NCBI GenBank assembly: GCA_041674105.1
Contig: JBAYWK010000004.1
Coordinates: forward strand, 1 to 58,287
From: Minisyncoccota bacterium
Lineage (GTDB): Bacteria > Patescibacteriota > Minisyncoccia > Phycocordibacterales > DATDWN01
Direction of reading: 5' to 3'
Length of the DNA stretch: 58,287 bases
Part shown: positions 6,962 through 51,834 of the stretch, piece after piece
Layout: every line of letters begins with the position of its first letter
Numbering within the stretch: position 1 is the stretch's first letter
Made by a program: the position numbers and the translations under genes
The notes under the pieces: generated by a model
Told to the model about the DNA's origin: nothing
Database searches by the model: none
The model's input: the letters and a program-made list of their open reading frames with translations, nothing else

Positions 6962-7078
6962 AATGAAAGAAAGTGTACCTTATATCATAAAAAAAATCAA
7001 CTCGTAATAATTTTTTACAGAACGATACATTTCTGTTGCACCCTAGCAAACTAGACCATCTATATAAATTTTTAAAAT

Positions 7079-7196
7079 AAATCCCCATCGAGTGTATGTG
7101 TTTTCTGAAACATTGCGAGCGCGACGGCGTGAACACGAGGAATTTTTCAGTAGAAAAATATCCGTTTTCAGAAAACATATACCGAGATGGGGATTT
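7079..7196 (+). repeat. Structured intergenic element, copy B
   Basis: Arms aaatccccatc...gatggggattt and ttttctgaaa/tttcagaaaa; core GAGCGCGACGGCGTGA at 7117-7132; atttttc-AGTA-gaaaaat at 7142-7159. Confidence 0.7.
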
Positions 7197-7248
7197 AAAA
7201 AATCAAGGACAATCTAAAATTATGTTGCTGAGAAAGAGATTTTAAATA

Positions 7249-33934: not shown

Positions 33935-36253
33935 CTACTTCTTAGACTCTGTTACTATATCATCCACACTACAAACTCCACCGACACAAGCAAGTTCTGC
34001 TTTTTGTTCTAGCTCGTCTGTCGCTTCATAAGTCATAATCTTTGAGAAATCAATATGTTCAAACCTTTTCAACATCTCTTCGTAAGTTTTCTTGTCTATT
34101 GTCTCATAAGGAGCAAGTTTATATATATGATTTGTCCTAGGTAGAAATGAAAGACCTCCTACAATATTCCAATTTTTATAAACCCAATTAGCTACATCTA
34201 TCCACTCATCTTCACCTATAGAAATAGTTGTAGAAGGGTTATGTTCTGTATAATTTTCCTTCAAAACCTTCCAATATTCTAGTTGTTGTATTGCTGTTTG
34301 ATCATCTTTAAAAATAGATCCGTTTGGTGCTTTTACCGGAAAATCCAAAACAAAAGTTGTAGCTGTCTCTAGAGACTGTCCTACCTCTGGATGAAAAGGA
34401 ACGCCTTGGTCACGAAGCATTTTAAACAATGAATCAGTCACCGCAATTCTAACTCTTCTTATATAATATTCAGAATGTCTTGGGTGCATTCCAGAAGAAG
34501 AATCCACTGTTTGGGATAGGTTTCCTGATGGTTTTACACAAGTCACACAAGATGATTCACTTACACCAAATCTTTTTGCATAAATTTTATTTATCCTTAA
34601 AGACTCATTTTTCAACCTCCTTAAAACTTCCGGCTTTCGTGATACAGGAGAATCCCATTGTCCTGTAATAGATACTCCCAAAAGTCTCTCTTGTTCACAG
34701 TTTTGTTTCCACTCTTTTGAAAGGTAAGGGAAATATGTGAGTGTAGCCTGATATGTACCTAAAATAGTAGCTACTTTCATTTTTCTAATAAGACTAGCTT
34801 CAGTATCATCAGCTCTAGCTACTATTTCAGATAAGTTACAAAACTGTTTTGATTGTAGTATTATCTCTCCACAAGGATTTGTTCCCCATTGAGGTTTTTT
34901 ACCTTCAGCAAATAGATTCAGTCTCCTTTTAGGCAAAGTATAATCTAAAGATTCTCTATTAAATATTCCTCTTTCTCCAGAGCCACTTTTCATCAAAGCT
35001 AGCCATTCATCTAGAAATTCTGTATTTGTTGGCTTTGATGTATAAACAGCAGAATTATTTGCCAAAGATCTTTGTGGATCTGTCATCCAAAACTGACCTT
35101 TCTTTGCATCTCTTATTTTCTCATCCTCTAAATCTGATAAAGATATCATTGCACTTCTTCTGACTCCTCCAGAGACGACAATCTCTCCTATTTTACATAT
35201 AATATCGTGAGCATCTATATTTTCTAGTCTTTTACCTTGTCTTGCCAACATTTTTTGTCTTGTAAAAACCAAAAGCTCTTGTAGAGGAGCGGGGCCTGAA
35301 GATTTTCCTCCCATAGTTTTAAGTCTTGCTCCAGCCGGACGAAGTAAAGAGAAATCAAATTCCACATCCATCCCACTCGCCCAAGTCTCCATTCCCAAAG
35401 TGAGAGCGTCACACCAGCCTTCTTTACTATCTGGAACAACATAAGTGTCTATTTTTTTACCAGTTTGTTTTTGTATTTGCGGTAGTTTCTGAATATTCTC
35501 ACTTTCAACAGACCAACCTGCCCCCGTACCACACATAGAGATATACATTATTTCAGCAAAATCACGAAGTTTTGAAGGGGCAATAAAAGAACAGTTGTAG
35601 GCTGCCACATTTGTAGCTCTAGCTGCTGGACCTGCAAACTGCAAAAGTCGCATAGAAGGCATAGCCTCTTGTTTCAAAATAGCTTCTTTTACTTCTTTAT
35701 ACTCAGAATCTTTTAGTTTATTACCAAGATTCTCTTTCATAAAAGAAATATATCTTTCTACTGTTTCAACCCAAGTTTCTCTTCTGTTCTCCTCAGATAC
35801 CCATTTTGAGTAAGTCCTATAGTAAATAAACTCTCCTAAAGGATTTCTGAAATAATCCTTACTCTCTTTGGCGAGTTTTTTAACTTTCTCAGGGACTTCT
35901 ATACCTTTATACCTTAGTCTATTTCTTTCTTCTCTATACAAGATATATGACTTAGCAGTAGTCACATACTCAGAGAGCATAAGCTCTTTTTCAACAGAGT
36001 TTTGTATACCTTCAACTGTTGGAATAAAATTAGGATGTTTTTTAGAAATCCTTACCAAATCGGCAAAAACTTTGTTTGCCACCATCTCAGCCTCAGCCAA
36101 AGAACCTTCATTTGCGGATATCATAGCTTTGTTAATCGCGTTTGTTATCCTATCTACATCAAAATTAACAACCTCCCCATTCCTCTTTTCGACTTTTTTT
36201 ATCAAATCTGTTTTTTTAATCATTTTTGACTGGTTTTTTGATTCTTTTGGCAT
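33935..36253 (-). CDS. nrdJ: Class II (adenosylcobalamin-dependent) ribonucleotide reductase with an N-terminal ATP cone
   Basis: ATP cone (VEKRNGEVVNFD..I), PSMRLLQFAG..YNCSF, GTNPCGEI, TCVKPSGN, C-terminal ACVGGVC; no beta-subunit gene nearby. Confidence 0.85.
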   Translation of the reverse strand: MPKESKNQSKMIKKTDLIKKVEKRNGEVVNFDVDRITNAINKAMISANEGSLAEAEMVANKVFADLVRISKKHPNFIPTVEGIQNSVEKELMLSEYVTTAKSYILYREERNRLRYKGIEVPEKVKKLAKESKDYFRNPLGEFIYYRTYSKWVSEENRRETWVETVERYISFMKENLGNKLKDSEYKEVKEAILKQEAMPSMRLLQFAGPAARATNVAAYNCSFIAPSKLRDFAEIMYISMCGTGAGWSVESENIQKLPQIQKQTGKKIDTYVVPDSKEGWCDALTLGMETWASGMDVEFDFSLLRPAGARLKTMGGKSSGPAPLQELLVFTRQKMLARQGKRLENIDAHDIICKIGEIVVSGGVRRSAMISLSDLEDEKIRDAKKGQFWMTDPQRSLANNSAVYTSKPTNTEFLDEWLALMKSGSGERGIFNRESLDYTLPKRRLNLFAEGKKPQWGTNPCGEIILQSKQFCNLSEIVARADDTEASLIRKMKVATILGTYQATLTYFPYLSKEWKQNCEQERLLGVSITGQWDSPVSRKPEVLRRLKNESLRINKIYAKRFGVSESSCVTCVKPSGNLSQTVDSSSGMHPRHSEYYIRRVRIAVTDSLFKMLRDQGVPFHPEVGQSLETATTFVLDFPVKAPNGSIFKDDQTAIQQLEYWKVLKENYTEHNPSTTISIGEDEWIDVANWVYKNWNIVGGLSFLPRTNHIYKLAPYETIDKKTYEEMLKRFEHIDFSKIMTYEATDELEQKAELACVGGVCSVDDIVTESKK

Positions 36254-36344: not shown

Positions 36345-36353
36345 TGTGGATAA
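36345..36353 (-). promoter_or_regulatory. Consensus DnaA box upstream of the RNR gene
   Basis: TGTGGATAA on + = TTATCCACA on minus, about 90 bp upstream of nrdJ. Confidence 0.5.
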
Positions 36354-40131: not shown

Positions 40132-42024
40132 TTATTCTATTGTTTCTGGGTTATCTACCACAGGTTCTGGCTCTGCTTCTGGTAAAATTACTGGTTGTGA
40201 TTCTTCTTCAATAACTACCTTATCATCATTTGATTCTTCCTGTGTTTTCTCTACTGGTTCAGAAATAACTTCTTCCAAAACAACTTCTTCTTCTATGACT
40301 TCAGGCTCTTCTTCTGCTGTAACAACCTCCTTGGGTTCTTCGACTGTTTCTTCTGAGATTTCTTCTGTTCCCGCCACTTTTTCTTCCTCAACATTGTTTT
40401 CCACACCTTCAGGTTTTAGCCCTTCTTCCACAGGAGTAAGAGCTCCCGATATTTCTACAATAGGACTCTCTTCTTCTGGTTGTGTCAGAAGTATTTGGAA
40501 AGGAGCAGGATCATATATTTTACCACTATTCATTTTTGTATTGAGCATTGGATTTTCTGGGCCAAAAGCAACAATCTTTAACCAGATGTATCCCAAAAAT
40601 CCTGAAGGAACTTGCCAACTATAACTTCCAGTATTTGAAAGCTTCTGCCCTATGGAAACTTCCTCGTCTGAAGGAGTCAGAGAAGCTGAACCGTCAGTAT
40701 CTTTTATAAATGCCAAATCTATCAAAAGGTCATTGTCGGCTCCATTTGGATTTGTAGCTGTCCAAGTAATGTTGTAGTTGTATGTCCAATACCAAGTTAG
40801 AGTTCCACTCTGGTCTGGGTAGATTAGATCTAAGACAGGAGGAGTAAGTTTTACAAAATCTGACGCCTGATTTGTATCATAACCATTTGGTTTTCTACCC
40901 AAAGTAGAACCCCCTGGCACATCCAAGGCCCCTGGATTCCACACATTTTCATTATAATTTACCCAAGTTGTAGTGGCAGTTCCCCAGTTCATCTGATCTA
41001 TTATTATTCCATCTGGTCTTTTCAAAACCAACATATCAGCAGTATTAGCTAAACCGTTTCCAATTGAACCTCCTAAAACAATAGAAACCACACCATCTGC
41101 TCTCTGCCAATAATCCCAAGTGGACTCATCTGGAGCTATAACAGCAAAACCTTTGGCTGGTATCGGGTCACTTGTTGGTATCGTATCACAAGCTGTATTA
41201 TCACAAATTTTCCAACCTGTAATATCTATATCAGTATCTGTTTGGTTGTATATTTCTACCCATTCGTTTGTCGTATCAACTCCTCTTTTCGGAGAATCAA
41301 CATCATAATAGACTTTATTTATCCTCAGTCCCCAAGAATAAATAGTTGTAGAGGCAATCTCGTTATCAACAAAACCTCCACCCAAAATAGGATCGGAATT
41401 TTGAACAGCATTGTATGTAAAATTAAAAGTACAAACAGAGTTTGGCGTAGAAGAAGCAGAAAGTGTATTAAAAGTTATATCCCACAAGTCTGGTGTAGAT
41501 GTAGATATTAAAGTTGTTGTAGCTGAAACAAAAGTTGTAGTACTTCCCACCTGCCAAGGATTTCCATTTAGAGAAATGCCCAGACTCAAATCATTACAAA
41601 AACTCAAATCCCCAGAGGCATTGGTAGTGCTAGCGTTGTATATAAAAGGACTACTTTGCGGGCCACCTTGTATTTTTATTTGTTTTTTTGTTGTTGTGCC
41701 AGAACCAAAACTTAAAGATGACTCCAAGGTGTCTAGGTCTCCATTTAAGACTTCTATATCCACTACTCCAGCCTGCAAATTATTGTATGAAGTTTCTACA
41801 TCATTGTAATAAGAAGTGGTGATCCCTATAAAACTTGGACCACTAAACCAAATAATAGCCACCAGAGATGCAAAAGCGACTCTAGCCAAAACATAATTGT
41901 GGTCAACTTTTTTGAATTTTCTTTTGGTTCTTTTATAAAACCTTAGATATGTTTTAGAAATACTCTTATAAAGTGTCTTTATTTTTTTTACAAATCTATT
42001 CTTTTTTACATATCTTCTCTTCAT
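40132..42024 (-). CDS. SipW-substrate-like protein with a lamin-tail domain and acidic C-terminal tail
   Basis: TM followed by TTSYYNDVETSYNNLQAGVVDI; LRINKVYYD..NEWVEIYNQT..IDITGWKICD (LTD); Glu-rich tail. Confidence 0.75.
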   Translation of the reverse strand: MKRRYVKKNRFVKKIKTLYKSISKTYLRFYKRTKRKFKKVDHNYVLARVAFASLVAIIWFSGPSFIGITTSYYNDVETSYNNLQAGVVDIEVLNGDLDTLESSLSFGSGTTTKKQIKIQGGPQSSPFIYNASTTNASGDLSFCNDLSLGISLNGNPWQVGSTTTFVSATTTLISTSTPDLWDITFNTLSASSTPNSVCTFNFTYNAVQNSDPILGGGFVDNEIASTTIYSWGLRINKVYYDVDSPKRGVDTTNEWVEIYNQTDTDIDITGWKICDNTACDTIPTSDPIPAKGFAVIAPDESTWDYWQRADGVVSIVLGGSIGNGLANTADMLVLKRPDGIIIDQMNWGTATTTWVNYNENVWNPGALDVPGGSTLGRKPNGYDTNQASDFVKLTPPVLDLIYPDQSGTLTWYWTYNYNITWTATNPNGADNDLLIDLAFIKDTDGSASLTPSDEEVSIGQKLSNTGSYSWQVPSGFLGYIWLKIVAFGPENPMLNTKMNSGKIYDPAPFQILLTQPEEESPIVEISGALTPVEEGLKPEGVENNVEEEKVAGTEEISEETVEEPKEVVTAEEEPEVIEEEVVLEEVISEPVEKTQEESNDDKVVIEEESQPVILPEAEPEPVVDNPETIE

Positions 42025-42031
42025 TTTGGTT

Positions 42032-42583
42032 TTATTCCTGCTCTATTTCCTCCTTTTCCTTTTGTTCTTTTATTTTCTTCTTTTTCATCTTCTTTACTTC
42101 TTTCATTATTTTCACAACCTCGTCATAGACTATAAAAAGAGCTGGGATAACAATAATCAGAATAATTCCTGTTGGTTTCCTAGCAAAGTCTATAATGTAA
42201 CCAATAAAAGGAACTGAAAGCAAAACCTTTCCAACTATATCTTCTTCTGTAATCTCACCTGGATCTACAGCATTATTCGCATCACCTTTTGTGGCAAACA
42301 AGAGTGTCCCGCTAGAAACTCTGCTAGAAACTATTCTGTGTGTAGTCGGAATCTCATTTTTCTTTTTACCACCAAAAGTGACCACATCTCCCACTCCGTA
42401 CTGACTTTCTGGTTTTACTATGACAATACTTCCTACTTTTATTGTTGGCTCCATAGAACCAGAAGAAACTATTTTAACTTGGAAGTTTCCTTTTATAGGA
42501 AAAAGAGTAATGAGAAGTAAAATCCCTATTAAAATAACAAATGTATAAAGAACTGAATATAAAATTTTAAAGACTTTGTTCAT
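42032..42583 (-). CDS. sipW: SipW-type (S26B) signal peptidase I
   Basis: VSSGSMEPTI, GDVVTF, TTHRIV (Ser-His), TKGDANN..D; flanking TM helices. Confidence 0.92.
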   Translation of the reverse strand: MNKVFKILYSVLYTFVILIGILLLITLFPIKGNFQVKIVSSGSMEPTIKVGSIVIVKPESQYGVGDVVTFGGKKKNEIPTTHRIVSSRVSSGTLLFATKGDANNAVDPGEITEEDIVGKVLLSVPFIGYIIDFARKPTGIILIIVIPALFIVYDEVVKIMKEVKKMKKKKIKEQKEKEEIEQE

Positions 42584-42647
42584 TTTTTATGTAAAGTCTT
42601 AATCCCCACCACAAGAGATTGTGGTGAGTCAAAGACTTCAAACTATC

Positions 42648-44003
42648 TTATAGGTTAGGCTGAGGTGGTGATACCGGCTTATCTAGTTCCGGTACTGGAG
42701 TATAAGGAGGTTGACTTGCGATATTATCACAAGAGAACTCTGGATTATTTCTTGTCTGCACAGCATATGCTGTAAGTGAGGCTGCAAATGAATCTGACTG
42801 TGCGTTATTTAACATTCCCGATCCATCACAAACTAAAGCATCTCCATCTAGAGATAATGTTCCTGCACACCAAGCTAAACCAATATTTTTTGTAGTTGTA
42901 GCTGTAAGGAACTGTTGATTTCCAGAATCCAAACTCATCAAACTACCAAAGCTACTTAGAGGAGCAGGTCCTGTAATAATACCTTCTCCACTATCATGAA
43001 CACCGTTTGCATTTGTGTCCATCCAAGTAACAACATCTAAGTAATTTGAAAGTTCACCATTTCCTGAAGGATTTCCAACATTAGGAAGATCCCCTGTTTC
43101 AGATTCCTGAATTCCATTTTCTTGATCATCTTTGTTGTGAACGATTAGACAAGCATAAGCGTCGTTGTCATAGACGTGTAGAGAGATAACATTTGAACCT
43201 TCATCCCCTGGTTTTATATCACCAAAGTTGAAGAATGAGTCACCTTCTCCCAAATCTTTCTCTGTCCAAAGACGACAAGCGTTTTGGAAACCTGGAACAC
43301 TATTCTCAAATTCTTGTCCACATTGACCATCAATATGAAGTGCATATTTAAGACCTGCTGGATTATTTAGCACAGTACCATTTGGTTGTGCCCAGTTTTT
43401 AACCACAAATTGAAGAGTGTTAGTCCCTTGAACAATGTAAGGTGTCAAATCAACTGCTATAACATCAGCGGTGCTGTGATTGTTTTCTGATGCGTCATAG
43501 GCGATTTTTGTTCCATTAAGCCATACTTCATAACTATTGTCCGTAGCAACTGCAAAGTTTACAATTGCTTGGTCAAACGGTCCGTTCCAAGTAAACTTCT
43601 TTTCAAATGTGTAAGTTACATCAGTTGTAACATCAGCTAGAAGCACTGGATCGGTCGCCCAAATCCACTCTGCACCTGGAATATTTGCATCCCAGTTAGA
43701 ACCAGATGTTGTAACAGATGTAGGTGACACTAACACCGCTGTGTGAGGGAAAGACACAGGGTCACTACCCCCAACTGTTGCTACTACCATATTGCTTGTG
43801 TCGGAAACCAAATCAACATCACAAGTCCTACAATCTACACCATTGTAAGTTTGTTTTGTGTGATCTACTTTTAGGTCAATTGATCCTGCAGTAAAGATGT
43901 TACCTGATGAAGTTTCTTGGTCGTTATAGAACGCGCCAGTCACTCCCCAGACAATTCCTCCAACAAGAGCAATTACACCCAAACTTAATAATATTTTTTT
44001 CAT
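42648..44003 (-). CDS. TasA/CalY-family protein with a SipW-cognate signal peptide and an inserted beta-sandwich domain
   Basis: MKKILLSLGVI...TGAFYNDQETSSGNIFTAGSIDLKVD; FNFGDIKPGDEG; NNAQSDSFAASL. Confidence 0.85.
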   Translation of the reverse strand: MKKILLSLGVIALVGGIVWGVTGAFYNDQETSSGNIFTAGSIDLKVDHTKQTYNGVDCRTCDVDLVSDTSNMVVATVGGSDPVSFPHTAVLVSPTSVTTSGSNWDANIPGAEWIWATDPVLLADVTTDVTYTFEKKFTWNGPFDQAIVNFAVATDNSYEVWLNGTKIAYDASENNHSTADVIAVDLTPYIVQGTNTLQFVVKNWAQPNGTVLNNPAGLKYALHIDGQCGQEFENSVPGFQNACRLWTEKDLGEGDSFFNFGDIKPGDEGSNVISLHVYDNDAYACLIVHNKDDQENGIQESETGDLPNVGNPSGNGELSNYLDVVTWMDTNANGVHDSGEGIITGPAPLSSFGSLMSLDSGNQQFLTATTTKNIGLAWCAGTLSLDGDALVCDGSGMLNNAQSDSFAASLTAYAVQTRNNPEFSCDNIASQPPYTPVPELDKPVSPPQPNL

Positions 44004-44022
44004 AATTGCTTTTTGTTAATAA

Positions 44023-45390
44023 TTAATTTTCAAAATCGTGAACTATTCCGTTAAAGATAAGATTATCTACAAGAACAACCTGGTCTTTATTGTAAGTACC
44101 CATTCCAATACTGATACCAACAACCTTTGCGTTTGGATATTCAGCTAATAGTTGATTAAGTGTGAAATTAACTGGAGGATAACCACCTCCGCCACTTGAA
44201 TTATTTCCGTTAATAAGAACGCCATTTACCCAGAAAGTACCATCAGCTAGTGTAGCAGCCCAATTCTGCCAAGTACCATTTGTAATTGATGCGTCATTAA
44301 GACTGTCATATGCCGCGATGTTATAATACGGTTCAAATGTAACATCTTTAACAAGTGTGCCGTCATCAAGAAAATCAATAACTAGTCGGAAACTTGCATT
44401 TCCATTTATAGGATCAAATGCTGAGATTTGTTTTGAATCGTATGAGAATCCACTGATAGTTGAGAGTTTAACATCCTCGGCATGATTATATCGTACTCGA
44501 GAATTAACATCATCAGCTGTTGTTAACTGAAGAACCTTTGAACCTAGTGGTGCGTTAGCATCTTCTACAAATGCAACATCTCCACCGTCTTGAGTACCAT
44601 TTTCTGTCCAAACGATTTCTGGTTCTTGTGATTGTCCCCAATCTGAACACTTAAATTGTCCATTGTTTCTAGACTGAACAGTGTAGAAAGAAATATCTCC
44701 AGTTAGACTATCTGTTTGTGTTATGTTTCCTGATGTAGAAGGAAGTCCCCACTTTACACCTAAGTAAGTAGTAGTAGCTCCTGTCAAAGGTGCTCCTGTA
44801 GTTGAGTCATAGAGAGCCAAAACTCCATTTACAGGTTGTCCTGAAAGTAATGGAACTTCATCGTTATTCATAATATTATCCCCATCATCCTTCCAAATTG
44901 TCCAAACCATTTCTTCATCTAACTCGCCTTTTGCATTTGTATCATTTATTTTTACTTCTGGGCCTGTTAGACTATTTTCATCACTTGATAAGTTTGATAC
45001 AGCAGCACAAAGCCACGCATCGTTGTTTATAACATGAAGACTTATAGTGTTTTCACCAGAATCTCCTGGTTTTATATCATTAAAACTGAAGAATTTTTCA
45101 CCGACAATGTCTAACCCATTGCCATCTTGTCCCCAAGTACCTCCACAAGCGCTTCCTATAACAGGATATTGTGGAATTGTTTCTGAAGCATCTTGTTCAA
45201 GTGCCCACACTCCATTAACACAAATAGCATTGTTGTAGTGTTGCTGACTGTCTATTTTCAAATCAATTGCTCCAGCTGTAAAAACATTTGCAGTTGAAGT
45301 TTCTGTATCAGAGAAAAAAGCTCCTGTGGCACTTATTGAAATAGCAGCCACTATAGCGATTACTCCTAAACTTAGTAATATTTTTTTCAT
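44023..45390 (-). CDS. TasA/CalY-family protein with a SipW-cognate signal peptide and an appended C-terminal domain
   Basis: MKKILLSLGVI...TGAFFSDTETSTANVFTAGAIDLKID; FSFNDIKPGDSGENTISLHV; QTDSLTGDISF. Confidence 0.87.
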   Translation of the reverse strand: MKKILLSLGVIAIVAAISISATGAFFSDTETSTANVFTAGAIDLKIDSQQHYNNAICVNGVWALEQDASETIPQYPVIGSACGGTWGQDGNGLDIVGEKFFSFNDIKPGDSGENTISLHVINNDAWLCAAVSNLSSDENSLTGPEVKINDTNAKGELDEEMVWTIWKDDGDNIMNNDEVPLLSGQPVNGVLALYDSTTGAPLTGATTTYLGVKWGLPSTSGNITQTDSLTGDISFYTVQSRNNGQFKCSDWGQSQEPEIVWTENGTQDGGDVAFVEDANAPLGSKVLQLTTADDVNSRVRYNHAEDVKLSTISGFSYDSKQISAFDPINGNASFRLVIDFLDDGTLVKDVTFEPYYNIAAYDSLNDASITNGTWQNWAATLADGTFWVNGVLINGNNSSGGGGYPPVNFTLNQLLAEYPNAKVVGISIGMGTYNKDQVVLVDNLIFNGIVHDFEN

Positions 45391-45828
45391 AGTTATTTTA
45401 TTAGGCGAACATTTTTTTAAAATGTTTTAGCCCTTGATTAAATTAAACAAACGAAATTAAATAATAATTAACTTCACATGTTTACCTTTTTGTATTTCTA
45501 CAGAAAAGCAATCGACCTATGTAAAAAAACAAATATAACATCTAAACAGTGTATATATTTTGTGTACTATTGATTTGGAATAAACCCAAGACTTCCAAGC
45601 AAACCAATAATGTAAAATTGTTACAATATTATATGGATTAGTAAAGGTAGACAAATAAATATTCTATTGTGTATTGAGGTGTCTTTTTAATATATAGCCA
45701 ATCATAGCAGTCTAAGCTAAAAAATGTAAAAAAGTAAAATTAACTTTACTCCACACTTTATCCCCAATCTATCCACATTTTTACAAAAAAGTCGTTTTTT
45801 TGCTTATAATGTAAAAAGAGGTGTCTCC

Positions 45829-45936
45829 ATGAAAGAACCAATCATAGTGGTCATAGTATGGTTAGGCGGACTGACCATCTCTGTCTACTTTTGGAGTATA
45901 CTTGCAAACCTAGCTAGCATACATCTATCAAGGTAA
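45829..45936 (+). CDS. Small single-TM peptide 1 (35 aa: MKEPIIVVIVWLGGLTISVYFWSILANLASIHLSR)
   Basis: Absent from the ORF track; TATAAT at 45805-45810, GAGGTG SD, downstream hairpin 45955-45984. Confidence 0.65.
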   Translation: MKEPIIVVIVWLGGLTISVYFWSILANLASIHLSR

Positions 45937-46029
45937 CCCCAAAAGCATTTTACGATCCCCTTGCGCTGACAAAGCTAAGGGGATTTTCATATATAACTTT
46001 TTATGTATAATAAAAAAAGGAGGAGAATA

Positions 46030-46146
46030 ATGAAATACATTTTGGGTATGCTGGTGCTGTATGGCGCCAGCACTGCGTGTGTGATCTTTCTTCTAATTCT
46101 TTTTTTTAGAGAGGTAGCGAGATTTGCCACCCTCTATCCAAAATAA
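46030..46146 (+). CDS. Small single-TM peptide 2 (38 aa: MKYILGMLVLYGASTACVIFLLILFFREVARFATLYPK)
   Basis: Absent from the ORF track; TATAAT upstream, AAGGAGGAG SD, downstream hairpin 46161-46192. Confidence 0.7.
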   Translation: MKYILGMLVLYGASTACVIFLLILFFREVARFATLYPK

Positions 46147-46192
46147 AAACTCTCACAAACTCCCGTGACCGCACTAGTGTGTAGTCACGGGA

Positions 46193-46221
46193 TTGACTTT
46201 TAAACTGTTTTGGTGTATAAT
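46193..46221 (+). promoter_or_regulatory. Sigma70-type promoter for peptide 3
   Basis: TTGACT-N17-TATAAT. Confidence 0.75.
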
Positions 46222-46239
46222 AGAAGGTAGGAGGGTAGA

Positions 46240-46353
46240 ATGGGAACACTAGTTTTTCTTGGCGCTATATGTGCCTTCAGTGTTAGTGTGACCCTATTCG
46301 TGAGGCAACTCACGAGGAAGATGAATCGGGTTCTTGAAAAAACCCACCGATAA
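46240..46353 (+). CDS. Small single-TM peptide 3 (37 aa: MGTLVFLGAICAFSVSVTLFVRQLTRKMNRVLEKTHR)
   Basis: Absent from the ORF track; consensus promoter, AGGAGG SD, downstream hairpin aacccctccc/gggaggggtt at 46362-46389. Confidence 0.7.
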   Translation: MGTLVFLGAICAFSVSVTLFVRQLTRKMNRVLEKTHR

Positions 46354-46411
46354 CACCATCGAACCCCTCCCGGCTAGCAGGGAGGGGTTAAAATTTTCAT
46401 AAAAACAAACA

Positions 46412-46440
46412 AAAAAACCAGCCAAGGCTGGTCTTTTTTT
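46412..46440. terminator. Bidirectional terminator
   Basis: aaaaaaaccagcc-aa-ggctggtcttttttt. Confidence 0.7.
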
Positions 46441-46837
46441 ATTCTGAGTATTTGCCATCAAAATGGTCGTCTTTATCTGCTAGGGCATCATCTTTCGTCA
46501 CATGTACAGTTTTATCCTTATGTTCTGCTGGAGAATATATAGTATAAAGTTTCAAAGATTCTGAATCTGACTTGTTTATCACATTATGCATTGCTCCAGC
46601 GGGAACCACAATAGCTGTACCGTCCTCTACAGCGAGCTCTACGCCATTTAATACAGCCACCCCATTACCTTGTTCTACTCTAATAAATTGGTCAACCTCG
46701 TGGACCTCCTCGCCGATATCTTCCCCAGGTAAAAGCGACATCAAGACTAGCTGGCTATGTTTTGATGTATAAAGAACCTTCCTAAAATATTCATTTTCTA
46801 AAGATTCTTTTTCTATATTTGAAATATATCCTTTCAT
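46439..46837 (-). CDS. Cupin domain protein
   Basis: QLVLMSLLPGEDIGEEVHEVDQFIRVEQG...VPAGAMHNVIN...KLYTIYSP. Confidence 0.9.
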   Translation of the reverse strand: MKGYISNIEKESLENEYFRKVLYTSKHSQLVLMSLLPGEDIGEEVHEVDQFIRVEQGNGVAVLNGVELAVEDGTAIVVPAGAMHNVINKSDSESLKLYTIYSPAEHKDKTVHVTKDDALADKDDHFDGKYSE

Positions 46838-48393: not shown

Positions 48394-49056
48394 CTACTTC
48401 TCTTCCTCAATTAAACCATCTTTGAGCCAGATGACTCTGTCTACATATTTTCTATCCTCTGGTTCGTGTGTCACAACTAAAATTGTTTGCTTCAATTCTT
48501 TATTAAGTTTTTGAAAAAGTTTAAAAACAATTTCTGATGAAACTGTATCAAGGTTAGCCGTTGGCTCATCAGCAAAAAGTACTTTTGGGTTATTTATAAG
48601 TGACCGTGCAATAGCAACTCGTTGTTGTTCACCCCCAGACATTTCACTTGGATAATGGCTTATCCTCTCTCCCAAACCAACTAAATCTAAAAGATGCTCT
48701 GCTCGTTTTTTAGCCACTTCATCTCCAGAAGCCATTGCTGGAAAATAAACATTTTCAAGGGCTGTAAACTCTGCGATTAAGGCATATTCTTGGAAAACAT
48801 ATCCTAAATGCTCAAGCCTAAATTTGGTTCTCTCTTCATCGGACAAAGACAAGACATCTGATTTATTGATAACAACACTACCAGAGGTTGGTTTATCAAG
48901 AAGACCCAGTTGATGTAAAAGAGTTGATTTACCTGACCCACTTCTTCCCATAAGTGCCACGAGCTCCCCTTCAGCGATTTCAAGTGTAACACCTTTGAGC
49001 GCTTGTGTTGGAATTTTCCCTGGATATGTTTTTATAAGATTTTCTACTTTTATCAT
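48394..49056 (-). CDS. ABC transporter ATP-binding protein (MacB/LolD-like)
   Basis: GRSGSGKST, MSGGEQQRVAIARSL, FADEPTANLD, VVTHE. Confidence 0.92.
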   Translation of the reverse strand: MIKVENLIKTYPGKIPTQALKGVTLEIAEGELVALMGRSGSGKSTLLHQLGLLDKPTSGSVVINKSDVLSLSDEERTKFRLEHLGYVFQEYALIAEFTALENVYFPAMASGDEVAKKRAEHLLDLVGLGERISHYPSEMSGGEQQRVAIARSLINNPKVLFADEPTANLDTVSSEIVFKLFQKLNKELKQTILVVTHEPEDRKYVDRVIWLKDGLIEEEK

Positions 49057-49064
49057 ATATTTTA

Positions 49065-50294
49065 TTAACCCCAAATTGATTTAAGAATGTTTTCTCTTGC
49101 TACAATCTTGGCAGGAATAAATCCCGCTAAAACCCCTGCAATGATTAAACTTGCGATATTTATAAAAATTCCAAGGGAAGTATAAGCCAAACTGGCATTA
49201 CCAAATGGCATTGGAATAGGTCGTGCAGTAAGAAAAGGAATAACTATTAAAAATATCACTATAGTTCCGCCTATAACACCTAAAATCGCATAGAAAAGGG
49301 ACTGAATGACATACGACAGTTCTATAATACTTTCCTTTATCCCAATAGCTTTCAAAATACCTATCTGTCTACGCTTGCTGACGGCATTTACATAAATCAT
49401 AACGAATATAGTTATAGCGGCTACAATAATACTGATGATGCTTACAATAATTGCAATAACATTGAAAGCCGAGACCAGTACGCCCACGGTTGATAGGCGG
49501 TCAATATATGTCTCGGTTGTAAGCTCCGGTAAAATAGATTGAATCCGGTCAATATAATATGCTAAAGAGTTTTTAGTTAGATCCACCTTGACCATAATCT
49601 CAGAAGCATTGTTATATGTTGAAAGTACTGCTTCCGCTTCCTTTGTTGATATAAATGCGGTACTACCAATTCCTCCTATGGTTATTTTAAATATCCCCTT
49701 GATCGTATATGTTCGCATTATTCCATTTACATAAGTCACTTGCACTTTATTGCCCACAGTAGCACCACCCAGATCGTTTGTTTGTTTTGTACCAAAACCA
49801 CCAGAAAGGTTTGCTCCTAGTATTATTTCATCTTTTTTTAGATCATCGGGAAATTCCCCAGAGATCATATTTTTATTTACCTCTAAGACATTTTTTTCTT
49901 CTGACTGTGTTATACCGATTATTGGGGCAGAGACATATTTGAATCTACCATTATTTTCTTTATCATAAGCAAAAGAACCCCCCAATTGATAATGACTGGC
50001 GGTAGAAATAATACCTGGAATAGTTTGGATTTGTGCGCGCACACTGTCTGCGTCAAGAATAAAATCCTTACGAGTTGGCTCTTGTTGTGGCATAACAATA
50101 ATATGAGCCGTCGAAGTGTCTACCATAGATCTCATAATCCCATCAGAAAAACCTGAGAGAAAACCCGAAACAAACATTAGATTAAAGAAGGAAAGTGATA
50201 AAATAAAAATAATAAGAGCCACTGTAGATTTATGACCTTTGGTGATAGTTTTATAAGCTATAAATAAAGCCGTTTTTATATCGGTCTTACTCAT
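49065..50294 (-). CDS. ABC transporter permease (FtsX/MacB-like)
   Basis: TM1, large extracytoplasmic domain, three C-terminal TMs; RRQIGILKAIG motif. Confidence 0.88.
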   Translation of the reverse strand: MSKTDIKTALFIAYKTITKGHKSTVALIIFILSLSFFNLMFVSGFLSGFSDGIMRSMVDTSTAHIIVMPQQEPTRKDFILDADSVRAQIQTIPGIISTASHYQLGGSFAYDKENNGRFKYVSAPIIGITQSEEKNVLEVNKNMISGEFPDDLKKDEIILGANLSGGFGTKQTNDLGGATVGNKVQVTYVNGIMRTYTIKGIFKITIGGIGSTAFISTKEAEAVLSTYNNASEIMVKVDLTKNSLAYYIDRIQSILPELTTETYIDRLSTVGVLVSAFNVIAIIVSIISIIVAAITIFVMIYVNAVSKRRQIGILKAIGIKESIIELSYVIQSLFYAILGVIGGTIVIFLIVIPFLTARPIPMPFGNASLAYTSLGIFINIASLIIAGVLAGFIPAKIVARENILKSIWG

Positions 50295-50295
50295 A

Positions 50296-51834
50296 TTATT
50301 TTTTATTACCGAGAACAACTTGCTCACCCAAAGAAAGACCTGATGTGATTTCAATCATACCTAAATCATTTTTGATCCCAGTAGTTACTTCTTTATCAAT
50401 AACTTGTTTTTCTTCAAAAACTTGAACAATTTTTTTACCATCTTTATCCTGCACAGCACTTACTGGAACGAAAAGAGTATTCTCGGAAATAGCCGTTTCA
50501 ATCCAGACATTGGCTGTCATACCAGACTTGATCCTTTCATCCATTTTCTCAAAAAGAACTGTGGTTTTATAATATACAGCACCACCAATAATAGTTTCTG
50601 CTGGATCTATGGCCACCACTTTACCAAAAAACTCTTCTTTATCAATTGAATCAAATGTAATCCTGGCTTCTTGTCCAACTCGGACATTTACAATATTGTC
50701 TTCCACAACATTCAATTTAATCTGAAGTGCTCCACCGGTAGCAAGTGAGATAATGGTCTTGTCCGGACCAACAACCTCACCAACCTCACCATTTACCTCG
50801 GTCACTACACCAGATAAAGGGGCAGAAATTATTAAATCTTCTCTTAGGGATTGGGTTCTTTGTAGAGAAGCTTTGGCTTGGCTAATTTGTGATTGATACA
50901 CTGCAATATCGGAAGGTCGTGCAGGAGCCTTCTTTAATGCTAGATGACTTTCGGCCGTTTTCAACCCTGCTTCTTTCGCTTTGAGATTTTCTCCCGCAAT
51001 TAGAAGATTAGAAATTGCAATATCTATATTTGTTCTGGCTGTAGAAATATCAGTTTTCCATTTATCAATTGTTGTCTGAGAAGTATTGGAGCTCGGGGTG
51101 AGGGCATTTACCAACAGTGCTATTTTTTCAATAAATGATTTAACCTGATTAGTGTTTTGCTCTGCAATAAGATAGCTAGAGGAAAGGTCATCTTGTGCAG
51201 AAATTGTACCAAGTGAGTTGACCCATTTATTTAAAGCTTCTTCAATTAAAACCCTACCACCTTCAACATCATTTTCAAGCTGTCCATTTGAAGAGATAAA
51301 AACCAATTGCGGACTGGAAGTCTTTGGATTACTAAACAACTGATCAGTTTTCCCGCGTACCGCATCATCAGATTTAGTATAAGAATTATTTACTTTATCA
51401 ATAAGACTATATTTGGCGTCCTGCAGTGCTTGCTTAGCATTTGTTACCGCCGTCTCGGACAAATTAATATCTTCTACAGACACCCCACTAAGTAGCTGAT
51501 CCAATTTCGCCTTCTGTAAATCTATACTGGCTTGCATTTCAAAAACCTGAGCGTCAAGCTGGGTACTATCTTGTTTAGCAAGGACATCACCGGCAGAGAC
51601 CTTGTCTGAGACTTTTGCATTCATTGAAACTAACTTTCCACTACTTCTAAAATGTAAATCAATTTTGGTTGGTGACTCAACTTTTCCACTAGCTGAAACC
51701 TCTTGAATCATATTGCCTCTTTGAACTACAGCCAATTCATACGGTATATTATTGGCTCGTCTGATTAAAAAAATTGTCGCACCGGCTAAAACAATGATAA
51801 TAATTCCTGCGATTAAAAGAGACTTTTTGTTCAT
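50296..51834 (-). CDS. Efflux periplasmic adaptor subunit (HlyD/MacA-like)
   Basis: VSASGKV, lipoyl-like halves, long hairpin coil, ISAPLSGVV, IKSGMTANV. Confidence 0.88.
   Translation of the reverse strand: MNKKSLLIAGIIIIVLAGATIFLIRRANNIPYELAVVQRGNMIQEVSASGKVESPTKIDLHFRSSGKLVSMNAKVSDKVSAGDVLAKQDSTQLDAQVFEMQASIDLQKAKLDQLLSGVSVEDINLSETAVTNAKQALQDAKYSLIDKVNNSYTKSDDAVRGKTDQLFSNPKTSSPQLVFISSNGQLENDVEGGRVLIEEALNKWVNSLGTISAQDDLSSSYLIAEQNTNQVKSFIEKIALLVNALTPSSNTSQTTIDKWKTDISTARTNIDIAISNLLIAGENLKAKEAGLKTAESHLALKKAPARPSDIAVYQSQISQAKASLQRTQSLREDLIISAPLSGVVTEVNGEVGEVVGPDKTIISLATGGALQIKLNVVEDNIVNVRVGQEARITFDSIDKEEFFGKVVAIDPAETIIGGAVYYKTTVLFEKMDERIKSGMTANVWIETAISENTLFVPVSAVQDKDGKKIVQVFEEKQVIDKEVTTGIKNDLGMIEITSGLSLGEQVVLGNKK

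Follow-up and report, generated by a model that had tools for sequence, protein, structure and literature searches.

Bacterial small membrane proteins of fewer than 50 amino acids include MgrB, AcrZ, MgtS, KdpF and CydX of Escherichia coli and SpoVM of Bacillus subtilis. They act by binding larger membrane proteins, and they are mostly encoded by single genes or inside the operon of their partner. The locus described herein lies in a 58,287-nucleotide stretch of contig JBAYWK010000004.1 (assembly GCA_041674105.1, a Minisyncoccota bacterium of the Patescibacteria; the whole stretch is referred to as the window) and consists of three consecutive cassettes, each composed of a promoter, a Shine–Dalgarno sequence, a short open reading frame (ORF) and a hairpin. 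Judged by its sequence, this array is a new example of the small membrane protein class. With the known members it shares the length of 30-50 amino acids, the single helix, a Shine–Dalgarno sequence of its own, the frequent lack of annotation and the restriction to a lineage. It differs from them in that no sequence relation can be recognized and in that three unrelated monocistronic units with minimal untranslated regions (UTRs) stand in tandem. Nothing was found in the literature on such arrays in Patescibacteria, or on links of this kind to SipW or to DnaA boxes in that group.

The cassettes are encoded on the + strand and occupy the right-hand 660 bp of the 1,048-bp gap between a TasA-like gene and a cupin gene, a gap that contains no ORF of 100 amino acids or more. 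The original prediction, made from the sequence letters alone, had described three units about 200 bp apart, each with a TATAAT box, a strong Shine–Dalgarno sequence, a hydrophobic ORF of 35-38 amino acids and a hairpin, and every one of these elements was recovered, with start-to-start distances of 201 and 210 bp. The promoter of cassette 1, as read from the sequence (45780-45810), combines a -35 box TTTACA (45780-45785) with a -10 box TATAAT (45805-45810) across a 19-nt spacer. It is followed by the Shine–Dalgarno sequence AAGAGGTG (45816-45823), by ORF 1 (45829-45936; MKEPIIVVIVWLGGLTISVYFWSILANLASIHLSR, 35 amino acids with one transmembrane helix) and by a terminator-like hairpin with a subsequent UUUU (45954-45985; -18.4 kcal/mol, z-score -4.76). 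Cassette 2 comprises a promoter found by scanning (45984-46011; TTTTCA-16-TATAAT, 10 of 12 matches, -10 box at 46006-46011), the Shine–Dalgarno sequence GGAGGAG (46019-46025), ORF 2 (46030-46146; MKYILGMLVLYGASTACVIFLLILFFREVARFATLYPK, 38 amino acids) and a terminator-like hairpin (46161-46192; -22.7 kcal/mol, z-score -4.78). The mechanical ORF list starts ORF 2 at 46003; the start is placed at 46030 because in L202, the sister-species locus discussed below, that earlier ATG is not in frame. Cassette 3 repeats the arrangement with a scanned promoter (46193-46221; TTGACT-17-TATAAT, 11 of 12 matches, -10 box at 46216-46221), the Shine–Dalgarno sequence AGGAGGG (46229-46235), ORF 3 (46240-46353; MGTLVFLGAICAFSVSVTLFVRQLTRKMNRVLEKTHR, 37 amino acids with a basic amphipathic tail) and a third terminator-like hairpin (46362-46389; -21.5 kcal/mol, z-score -4.5).

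From the -10 box to the ATG there are exactly 18 nt in all three cassettes, so that the 5′ UTRs would measure only about 12 nt and hold little beyond the Shine–Dalgarno sequence, which itself ends 4-6 nt before the start codon. The -35 boxes of promoters 2 and 3 begin at the end of the preceding hairpin, and promoter 3, starting at 46193, directly adjoins hairpin 2, ending at 46192, as had been predicted. The three hairpins have z-scores of -4.5 to -4.8, and equally stable folds were obtained in none of 200 shuffles; their absence from a consensus terminator scan is explained by their short U-tracts. Each peptide contains one hydrophobic helix of bilayer-spanning length, with hydrophobic stretches of 19-28 residues and 15-residue hydropathy maxima of 2.25-2.61. 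Peptides 2 and 3 have the basic C-termini already ascribed to them and carry net charges of roughly +3 to +4; peptide 1 has almost no net charge. The architecture is repeated without any repetition of sequence, also as foreseen, the units not being repeats of one another.

Such a cluster is more than chance. A detector was defined that looked for ORFs of 22-60 codons whose 15-residue hydropathy reaches 2.0 or more, with a Shine–Dalgarno core 3-12 nt upstream and, within 80 nt, a hairpin at least as stable as -12 kcal/mol. Applied to the two strands of the window, it returned four matches, namely the three cassettes and one site inside a long ORF. In 884 kb of other Patescibacteria loci it returned about 30 distinct sites (approximately one per 30 kb), which were clustered only in relatives of the array locus. 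Furthermore, the three cassette ORFs are the only intergenic ORFs of at least 20 codons in the window that are both preceded by a Shine–Dalgarno sequence and hydrophobic to transmembrane grade.

The evidence that the ORFs are coding comes from comparison with relatives, which were located via the flanking genes. Two assemblies from other samples (L081 and L082) were uninformative because they are 100% identical to the window. The informative comparison is with a sister species represented by two Logan assemblies (L202 and L203), whose proteins share 94% (cupin), 90% (SurA-like), 89% (SipW) and 68% (TasA-like) identity with those of the window. L202 carries all three cassettes in unchanged order, with amino-acid identities of 24/35 for ORF 1 (at equal length), 30/38 for ORF 2 and 27/37 for ORF 3. 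The original prediction had named a lack of ORF conservation, or frame-disrupting variants in close relatives, as findings that would speak against it. Both were looked for: the ORFs are conserved and no frame-disrupting indel occurs in this nearest relative, the only length difference being one additional C-terminal codon in ORF 3 of L202. The 89 nucleotide differences are distributed over codon positions 1, 2 and 3 as 24, 13 and 52 (chi-square p = 1.2e-6), and in ORF 3 taken singly as 9, 6 and 25. Over the three ORFs the pooled proportions of nonsynonymous and synonymous differences (pN and pS) are 0.157 and 0.645, giving a pN/pS of 0.24 and a Jukes–Cantor-corrected rate ratio (dN/dS) of 0.12; ORF 1 by itself has a pN of 0.159 and a pS of 0.475. 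Neighbouring genes range in pN/pS from 0.065 (cupin) to 0.38 (TasA-like), and the value for the small ORFs falls within this range, as expected of ordinary, fairly fast-evolving proteins. Every alternative frame has stop codons in at least one of the three ORFs.

The signals around the ORFs are kept as well. The spacers are 71-82% identical to L202. Third codon positions reach 32-66%, and the segment 45668-45746, apparently free of constraint, 66%. The Shine–Dalgarno sequences and start codons are conserved. In place of promoter 1, L202 has TTGCAA-17-TATAAT and in place of promoter 2 TTTTCA-16-TATACT; the hexamers of promoter 3 are identical. Hairpins 1 and 3 are retained at -20.0 and -23.4 kcal/mol, and hairpin 2 is shorter and remodelled (-10.7 kcal/mol). 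Within the sister species, L203 differs from L202 over the 1.1-kb locus only in the -10 box of promoter 3, which changes from TATAAT to TATAAC (array region position 866). Taken together, the ORFs, all of 50 codons or fewer and under purifying selection, are real, conserved coding genes for predicted single-helix membrane proteins, and the proposal of independently signalled single-transmembrane microprotein genes holds, each unit having signals of its own.

Beyond L202 the DNA alignment is lost, although the locus remains recognizable, and two to four small ORFs are present at it in five genomes. In L204 (TasA-like protein 65% identical) an ORF of 38 amino acids gives an ungapped alignment with peptide 2 (42% identity). 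Four cassettes are present in L001 (cupin 84% identical), of which one is similar to peptide 2, one to peptide 1 and two weakly to peptide 3. The peptide 2-like product, u3, is 30% identical and aligns FLKEVMRV against FFREVARF, and the weak likeness of u4 and u2 to peptide 3 includes an L.[KI]THR-like motif at the C-terminus. In shuffle tests the peptide 2 family was supported at a p of at most 0.002, and the other cross-genus likenesses were marginal. The amino-acid conservation of peptide 2 thus persists in genomes whose DNA no longer aligns. L122/L210 present a different arrangement, with two translationally coupled transmembrane ORFs behind one promoter and before one hairpin. A hairpin of -16 to -22 kcal/mol follows each small-ORF unit of L001, L122 and L204, the one in L122 serving both ORFs.

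The surroundings of these units vary as well. In L204 the neighbour on the other side is a Vut_1 gene in place of the cupin gene. The same genome contains, on the reverse strand upstream of its TasA-like gene (about 526-666 of the region), a second cassette with Shine–Dalgarno sequence and hairpin that encodes a basic non-membrane ORF of 46 amino acids (MFQFWKRWQRKQKPKL...), so the locus is not limited to transmembrane peptides. A multi-transmembrane ORF of 81-86 amino acids stands between array and cupin gene, on the strand of the latter, in L001 (695-940, +) and L122 (3884-4144, +), and is missing from the window. No cassettes were found at five more distant TasA-like loci (L205, L207, L208, L209 and L212). 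Cupin-anchored scans of genome and metagenome contigs found the arrangement only in L001 and L122 among 160 loci, which shows that the array does not generally accompany this cupin. L001 was also the only match when 185,579 species genomes were scanned with a leader 20-mer. In a small clade of Patescibacteria, a variable 'small-protein islet' with lineage-restricted families adjoins the TasA-like/SipW operon.

Database searches agree with this narrow distribution. Profiles of Pfam, NCBIfam, PHROGs, PADLOC and PDB returned nothing meaningful for the three peptides; at E ≤ 10 there were noise-level hits only, to unrelated domains of unknown function and to one named family, Coa3_cc. A search of the concatenated peptides against 5.8 billion proteins gave no hit. 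In an exhaustive HMMER search of 1.84 billion representatives, peptide 2 retrieved a single sequence, P0121, which was rejected as a homologue: it is a repetitive ORF of 974 amino acids that is matched 16 times, each time in the hydrophobic core only. The peptide 2 profile detected no further copies in the species genomes or in viral contigs, and the peptide families are therefore regarded as restricted to the small clade. ORFs 1-3 are uncalled in every assembly seen, and it is because gene callers skip them that the peptides are absent from protein databases. On the RNA side, a search of the window against Rfam yielded only tRNAs above the gathering thresholds and sub-threshold noise in the array region, where the antitoxin family OrzO-P reached 20 bits, its gathering score being 60.

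A further feature, overlooked in the original prediction, is found at the head of the array. DnaA-box clusters away from the origin and DnaA-regulated promoters are known from sda, ywlC and yydA in B. subtilis and from nrdAB and dnaA in E. coli; sda encodes a very small protein under DnaA control, and Sda is a soluble inhibitor of a kinase. Three DnaA-box-like 9-mers occupy 45747-45777 on the + strand, between the divergent tasA-like promoter and promoter 1: TACTCCACA (45747), TTATCCCCA (45758) and CTATCCACA (45769), in the order TACTCCACA-ct-TTATCCCCA-at-CTATCCACA. They differ from the consensus TTATCCACA at two, one and one positions, respectively, and are spaced by 11 bp, about one helical turn, on the same strand. 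The 20-mer formed by the second and third boxes (45758-45777) is unique in the window, with 0.06 matches expected by chance. The trio region is identical to L202 at 28 of 31 positions, compared with 66% in the adjacent segment 45668-45746, and boxes occur at the same spot in five genomes, as trios in the window, L202, L001 and L122 and as a single perfect TTATCCACA in L204. Relative to the predicted transcription starts, the trio lies at about -40 to -70 of cassette 1 and about -93 to -123 of the divergent tasA-like operon. As at the promoters known from B. subtilis and E. coli, the boxes are close together, share one strand, immediately precede a -35 box and occupy intergenic DNA outside oriC. 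Unlike at sda, the product would be a membrane peptide, and the putative boxes could act on the divergent TasA-like operon.

The double box recurs in other genomes. A scan of the species-genome collection identified 40 loci, which is about the chance expectation. In six Patescibacteria (L104, L105, L112, L115, L119 and L121) dnaA is preceded by the exact double box at a distance of 4-276 nt, with DnaA confirmed by Pfam for three of these six downstream products, and several other loci are obvious DnaA-box clusters. In L107 (about 7047-7200, reverse strand) the double box is followed by TTGACT-type hexamers, a short hairpin-terminated stretch, which may be a small RNA, and an ORF of 223 amino acids. 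The window itself holds two perfect DnaA boxes. One of these (TTATCCACA, 36345-36353, - strand) is located about 92 nt upstream of a class II ribonucleotide reductase gene (33935-36253, - strand). As nrd genes are a classical DnaA target, this suggests that DnaA acts as a transcription factor in this genome.

The best reading, held with moderate confidence, is that the array comprises three monocistronic genes for abundantly expressed small membrane proteins of N-out/C-in topology with an accessory or regulatory role, the first of them probably DnaA-responsive. Each unit would be transcribed from a sigma-70-type promoter into an mRNA with a 5′ UTR of about 12 nt, and the stem-loop would end the transcript, stabilize it, or both. 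With all their basic residues located at the C-terminus, the peptides are predicted to insert N-out/C-in. They would be made constitutively in large amounts and, in the manner of MgrB, AcrZ, MgtS and KdpF, would act on larger membrane proteins as accessory or regulatory partners. A small-residue motif, LYG[AG]S[TA]A, is conserved in the helix of peptide 2 and fits helix–helix packing. Transcription of cassette 1 would be modulated by DnaA, that is, by replication status. Such modulation is probable because the 19-nt spacer of promoter 1 is suboptimal and its -35 box abuts the three phased boxes. Cassettes 2 and 3 would be constitutive, expressed from near-consensus promoters. The TasA-like/SipW system is the first candidate partner, as its adjacency persists even where the other neighbour changes (L204); the candidacy is a thin one, in that the relatives sharing this adjacency, in five genomes, were located through those very genes.

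Several points weigh against this reading. The function is inferred from the architecture alone, and sequence features cannot tell benign small membrane proteins from membrane toxins. The selection statistics derive from one close species pair. Copy number and families turn over rapidly between relatives (two to four ORFs, mostly unalignable), a behaviour commoner for accessory or conflict genes than for core subunits. Because the hairpins have weak U-tracts, it is uncertain how efficiently they terminate, and through read-through some transcripts could span more than one unit, leaving the array partly polycistronic. The target of the DnaA boxes might be the divergent tasA-like promoter instead, or the boxes might do no more than titrate DnaA. 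Moreover, the peptide 2-like ORF of L001 (about 1291-1181, - strand) has ATA at the position of the expected ATG, 6 nt past GGAGG, and lacks any alternative in-frame start further upstream; a near-cognate start, decay of this copy or an error of assembly could account for it.

Among the alternatives, type I toxin–antitoxin-like modules have to be considered first, and they are unlikely here. The cassettes would then encode membrane-depolarizing peptides held in check by an unrecognized antisense or trans-acting RNA. Size, the single hydrophobic helix and the charged C-terminal tail recall Fst, TisB, Ldr and BsrG, and tandem organization and fast turnover, the latter seen across the relatives of this locus, are known for type I toxins such as those of the ldrABC, ibs/sib, hok/sok, fst/RNAII and bsrG/SR4 systems. 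Known arrays of such toxins are sequence repeats, each unit of which combines a long, structured toxin mRNA with a gene for an antisense RNA. The present units, unlike those of the ldr, ibs and hok arrays, are not mutual repeats. Their 5′ UTRs of about 12 nt, exposed consensus Shine–Dalgarno sequences and near-consensus promoters are the opposite of what translation-repressed, structured toxin mRNAs display, and units of about 205 bp have no room for a separate antitoxin gene. An antisense promoter-like site does exist in both the window and L202 (TTCCCA-18-TATTAT, 46246 to 46217) and a short transcript from it could be complementary to the cassette 2 mRNA at its 3′ end. This sole site is a 9 of 12 match that overlaps the -10 box of promoter 3 and the start codon of ORF 3; the overlap forces its conservation, which is consequently uninformative, and a credible antitoxin promoter seems to be missing. 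Pfam, NCBIfam and PADLOC gave no hit to a toxin family (Hok, Ldr, TisB, Fst, Ibs, ShoB, TxpA or BsrG) at E ≤ 0.01.

A rather doubtful explanation is that the peptides are leaderless and secreted, resembling bacteriocins or phenol-soluble modulins (PSMs) or directed at a host, and that their targets are the membranes of other cells, such as those of the host of this presumed episymbiont. Aureocin A70 and enterocin L50 offer the closest precedent. Their peptides are amphipathic, rich in lysine and tryptophan, soluble and co-transcribed, and they are accompanied by a dedicated ATP-binding cassette (ABC) exporter and immunity genes. The adjacency of several leaderless peptides of 30-45 amino acids is common to those systems and the array, where the peptides are likewise small, unrelated, hydrophobic or cationic, and each predicted to be strongly expressed; the net charge of peptides 2 and 3 and the quick turnover among relatives, which suits conflict genes, point in the same direction. 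In addition, a MacB-type ABC transporter with a membrane-fusion protein (48394-51834) is encoded 2 kb from the array. The remaining features of aureocin A70 and enterocin L50, that is, amphipathic soluble peptides, co-transcription, an exporter and immunity functions, are not seen at the array. The uninterrupted hydrophobic stretches are those of membrane anchors rather than of amphipathic soluble helices, and peptide 1 carries almost no charge. The transporter lies outside the islet, beyond the cupin, SurA-like, tRNA and MliC-like genes, and the linkage to the cupin side, transporter included, is not conserved, since the neighbour of the L204 islet is Vut_1. Neither immunity nor modification genes were found, and there were no hits in viral contigs. 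Among the three roles offered by the original prediction (toxins, host-directed effectors and envelope regulators), the last is retained as the most plausible, by inference. The first two found no support: toxin homology is missing, a structured 5′ UTR has no room, and no co-conserved exporter or immunity gene was seen.

Considerably less probable is that a replication origin, or a DnaA sink of the datA type, is made up of the DnaA boxes and the conserved AT-rich DNA beside them, with the cassettes being incidental to it. A phased box trio beside a highly conserved, AT-rich stretch of 260 bp would suit this proposal, as would the dnaA-proximal position of the double box in other Patescibacteria. 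GC skew is negative on both sides of the locus, however, with the cumulative skew falling monotonically through 45.8 kb, and genes are mostly on the - strand on both sides, without a switch in orientation; on these two grounds an origin was rejected. Furthermore, neither dnaA nor dnaN was detected among the subset of window ORFs scanned against Pfam, the boxes are only three and all imperfect, and the AT-rich block is at least equally well accounted for if it is the 5′ leader belonging to the tasA-like operon, whose -10 box is conserved. An origin would, in any case, leave the coding status of the ORFs undisputed. Finally, the notion that the ORFs are chance frames within small non-coding RNA genes or an untranslated regulatory region is hardly credible: gene callers skipped them in all assemblies seen and no protein homologue emerged from 5.8 or 1.84 billion sequences, but the three-base periodicity, a pN well below pS, the intact frames, the retained Shine–Dalgarno sequences and start codons, the amino-acid conservation of peptide 2 where the DNA is unalignable and the lack of any Rfam match speak otherwise, and the codon pattern effectively excludes non-coding explanations.

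Within the reading as accessory or regulatory small membrane proteins, a bolder extension can be formulated, which is improbable at present. The islet would be a DnaA-gated module in which occupancy of the box trio sets the level of a small membrane protein, and perhaps also that of the divergent TasA-like fibre operon. If true, such a module would couple replication status to the assembly of envelope or surface fibres in an ultra-small symbiotic bacterium, and would constitute a membrane-peptide counterpart of the DnaA–Sda checkpoint of B. subtilis.

What takes the array beyond a routine addition to the small membrane proteins is the tandem arrangement of unrelated monocistronic units with a conserved DnaA-box trio at its head. 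Patescibacteria have tiny genomes in which roughly half of the genes are without known function. Three conserved genes that have strong signals and yet are invisible both to gene callers and to the protein databases consulted indicate that small membrane proteins are an unsampled part of Patescibacteria proteomes. The cassettes also offer clean, compact examples of predicted promoter, Shine–Dalgarno and terminator usage in an uncultivated phylum, and the putative box trio offers a concrete case for DnaA acting off-origin in this group. An interaction of the peptides with TasA-like/SipW fibres or with the host membrane, if true, would bear on how episymbionts build their cell surface.

Concerning the wider setting, the window comes from a genome with a GC content of about 35%, and its cupin and TasA-like proteins find their best matches throughout in metagenome-assembled genomes of Patescibacteria (Candidate Phyla Radiation, CPR). 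The array ends at a bidirectional intrinsic terminator (46411-46438), identified by terminator scan and folding, which it has in common with the convergent cupin gene (46439-46837, - strand). On its other side the array is, as had been noted before, divergent from the tasA operon. The - strand gene 44023-45390 encodes a TasA-like protein whose signal peptide is SipW-cognate (TasA-type); next come a second paralogue and SipW. The whole operon (40132-45390, - strand) encodes the two paralogous TasA-like proteins (455 and 451 amino acids, both with SipW-type signal peptides), the SipW signal peptidase (183 amino acids) and a lamin-tail-domain (LTD) protein of 630 amino acids, and is probably a surface-fibre system. 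Homologues of the TasA-like proteins bear the Joint Genome Institute (JGI) label 'ribosomally synthesized peptide with SipW-like signal peptide', which seems to be a misnomer at 450 amino acids.

The likely promoter of this operon, TTAAAA-18-TAGAAT (45690-45661, - strand), has a -10 box (TAGAAT or TAAAAT) that is conserved across four genomes. Between it and the start codon extends a leader of about 260 nt (45391-45654, - strand) that is AT-rich and unusually conserved, with 87% identity to L202, compared with 66% for neutral DNA, and with long blocks of 100% identity to L001 and L122. An Rfam search of the leader gave no match, and RNAalifold produced a conserved stem (TTATTGRTT/AATCAATAG) with a variable apical loop; the TasA-like/SipW operon may have a structured 5′ leader in this segment. 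Upstream of more distant TasA-like genes (L208, L209 and L212), the leaders have an element in common, GCATCGAC...GGCTGGGGAGCCTGCGG, whose ATCGAC core recurs in the leader of the window at about 45511-45516, and this element may represent a wider leader motif for operons of the TasA-like type.

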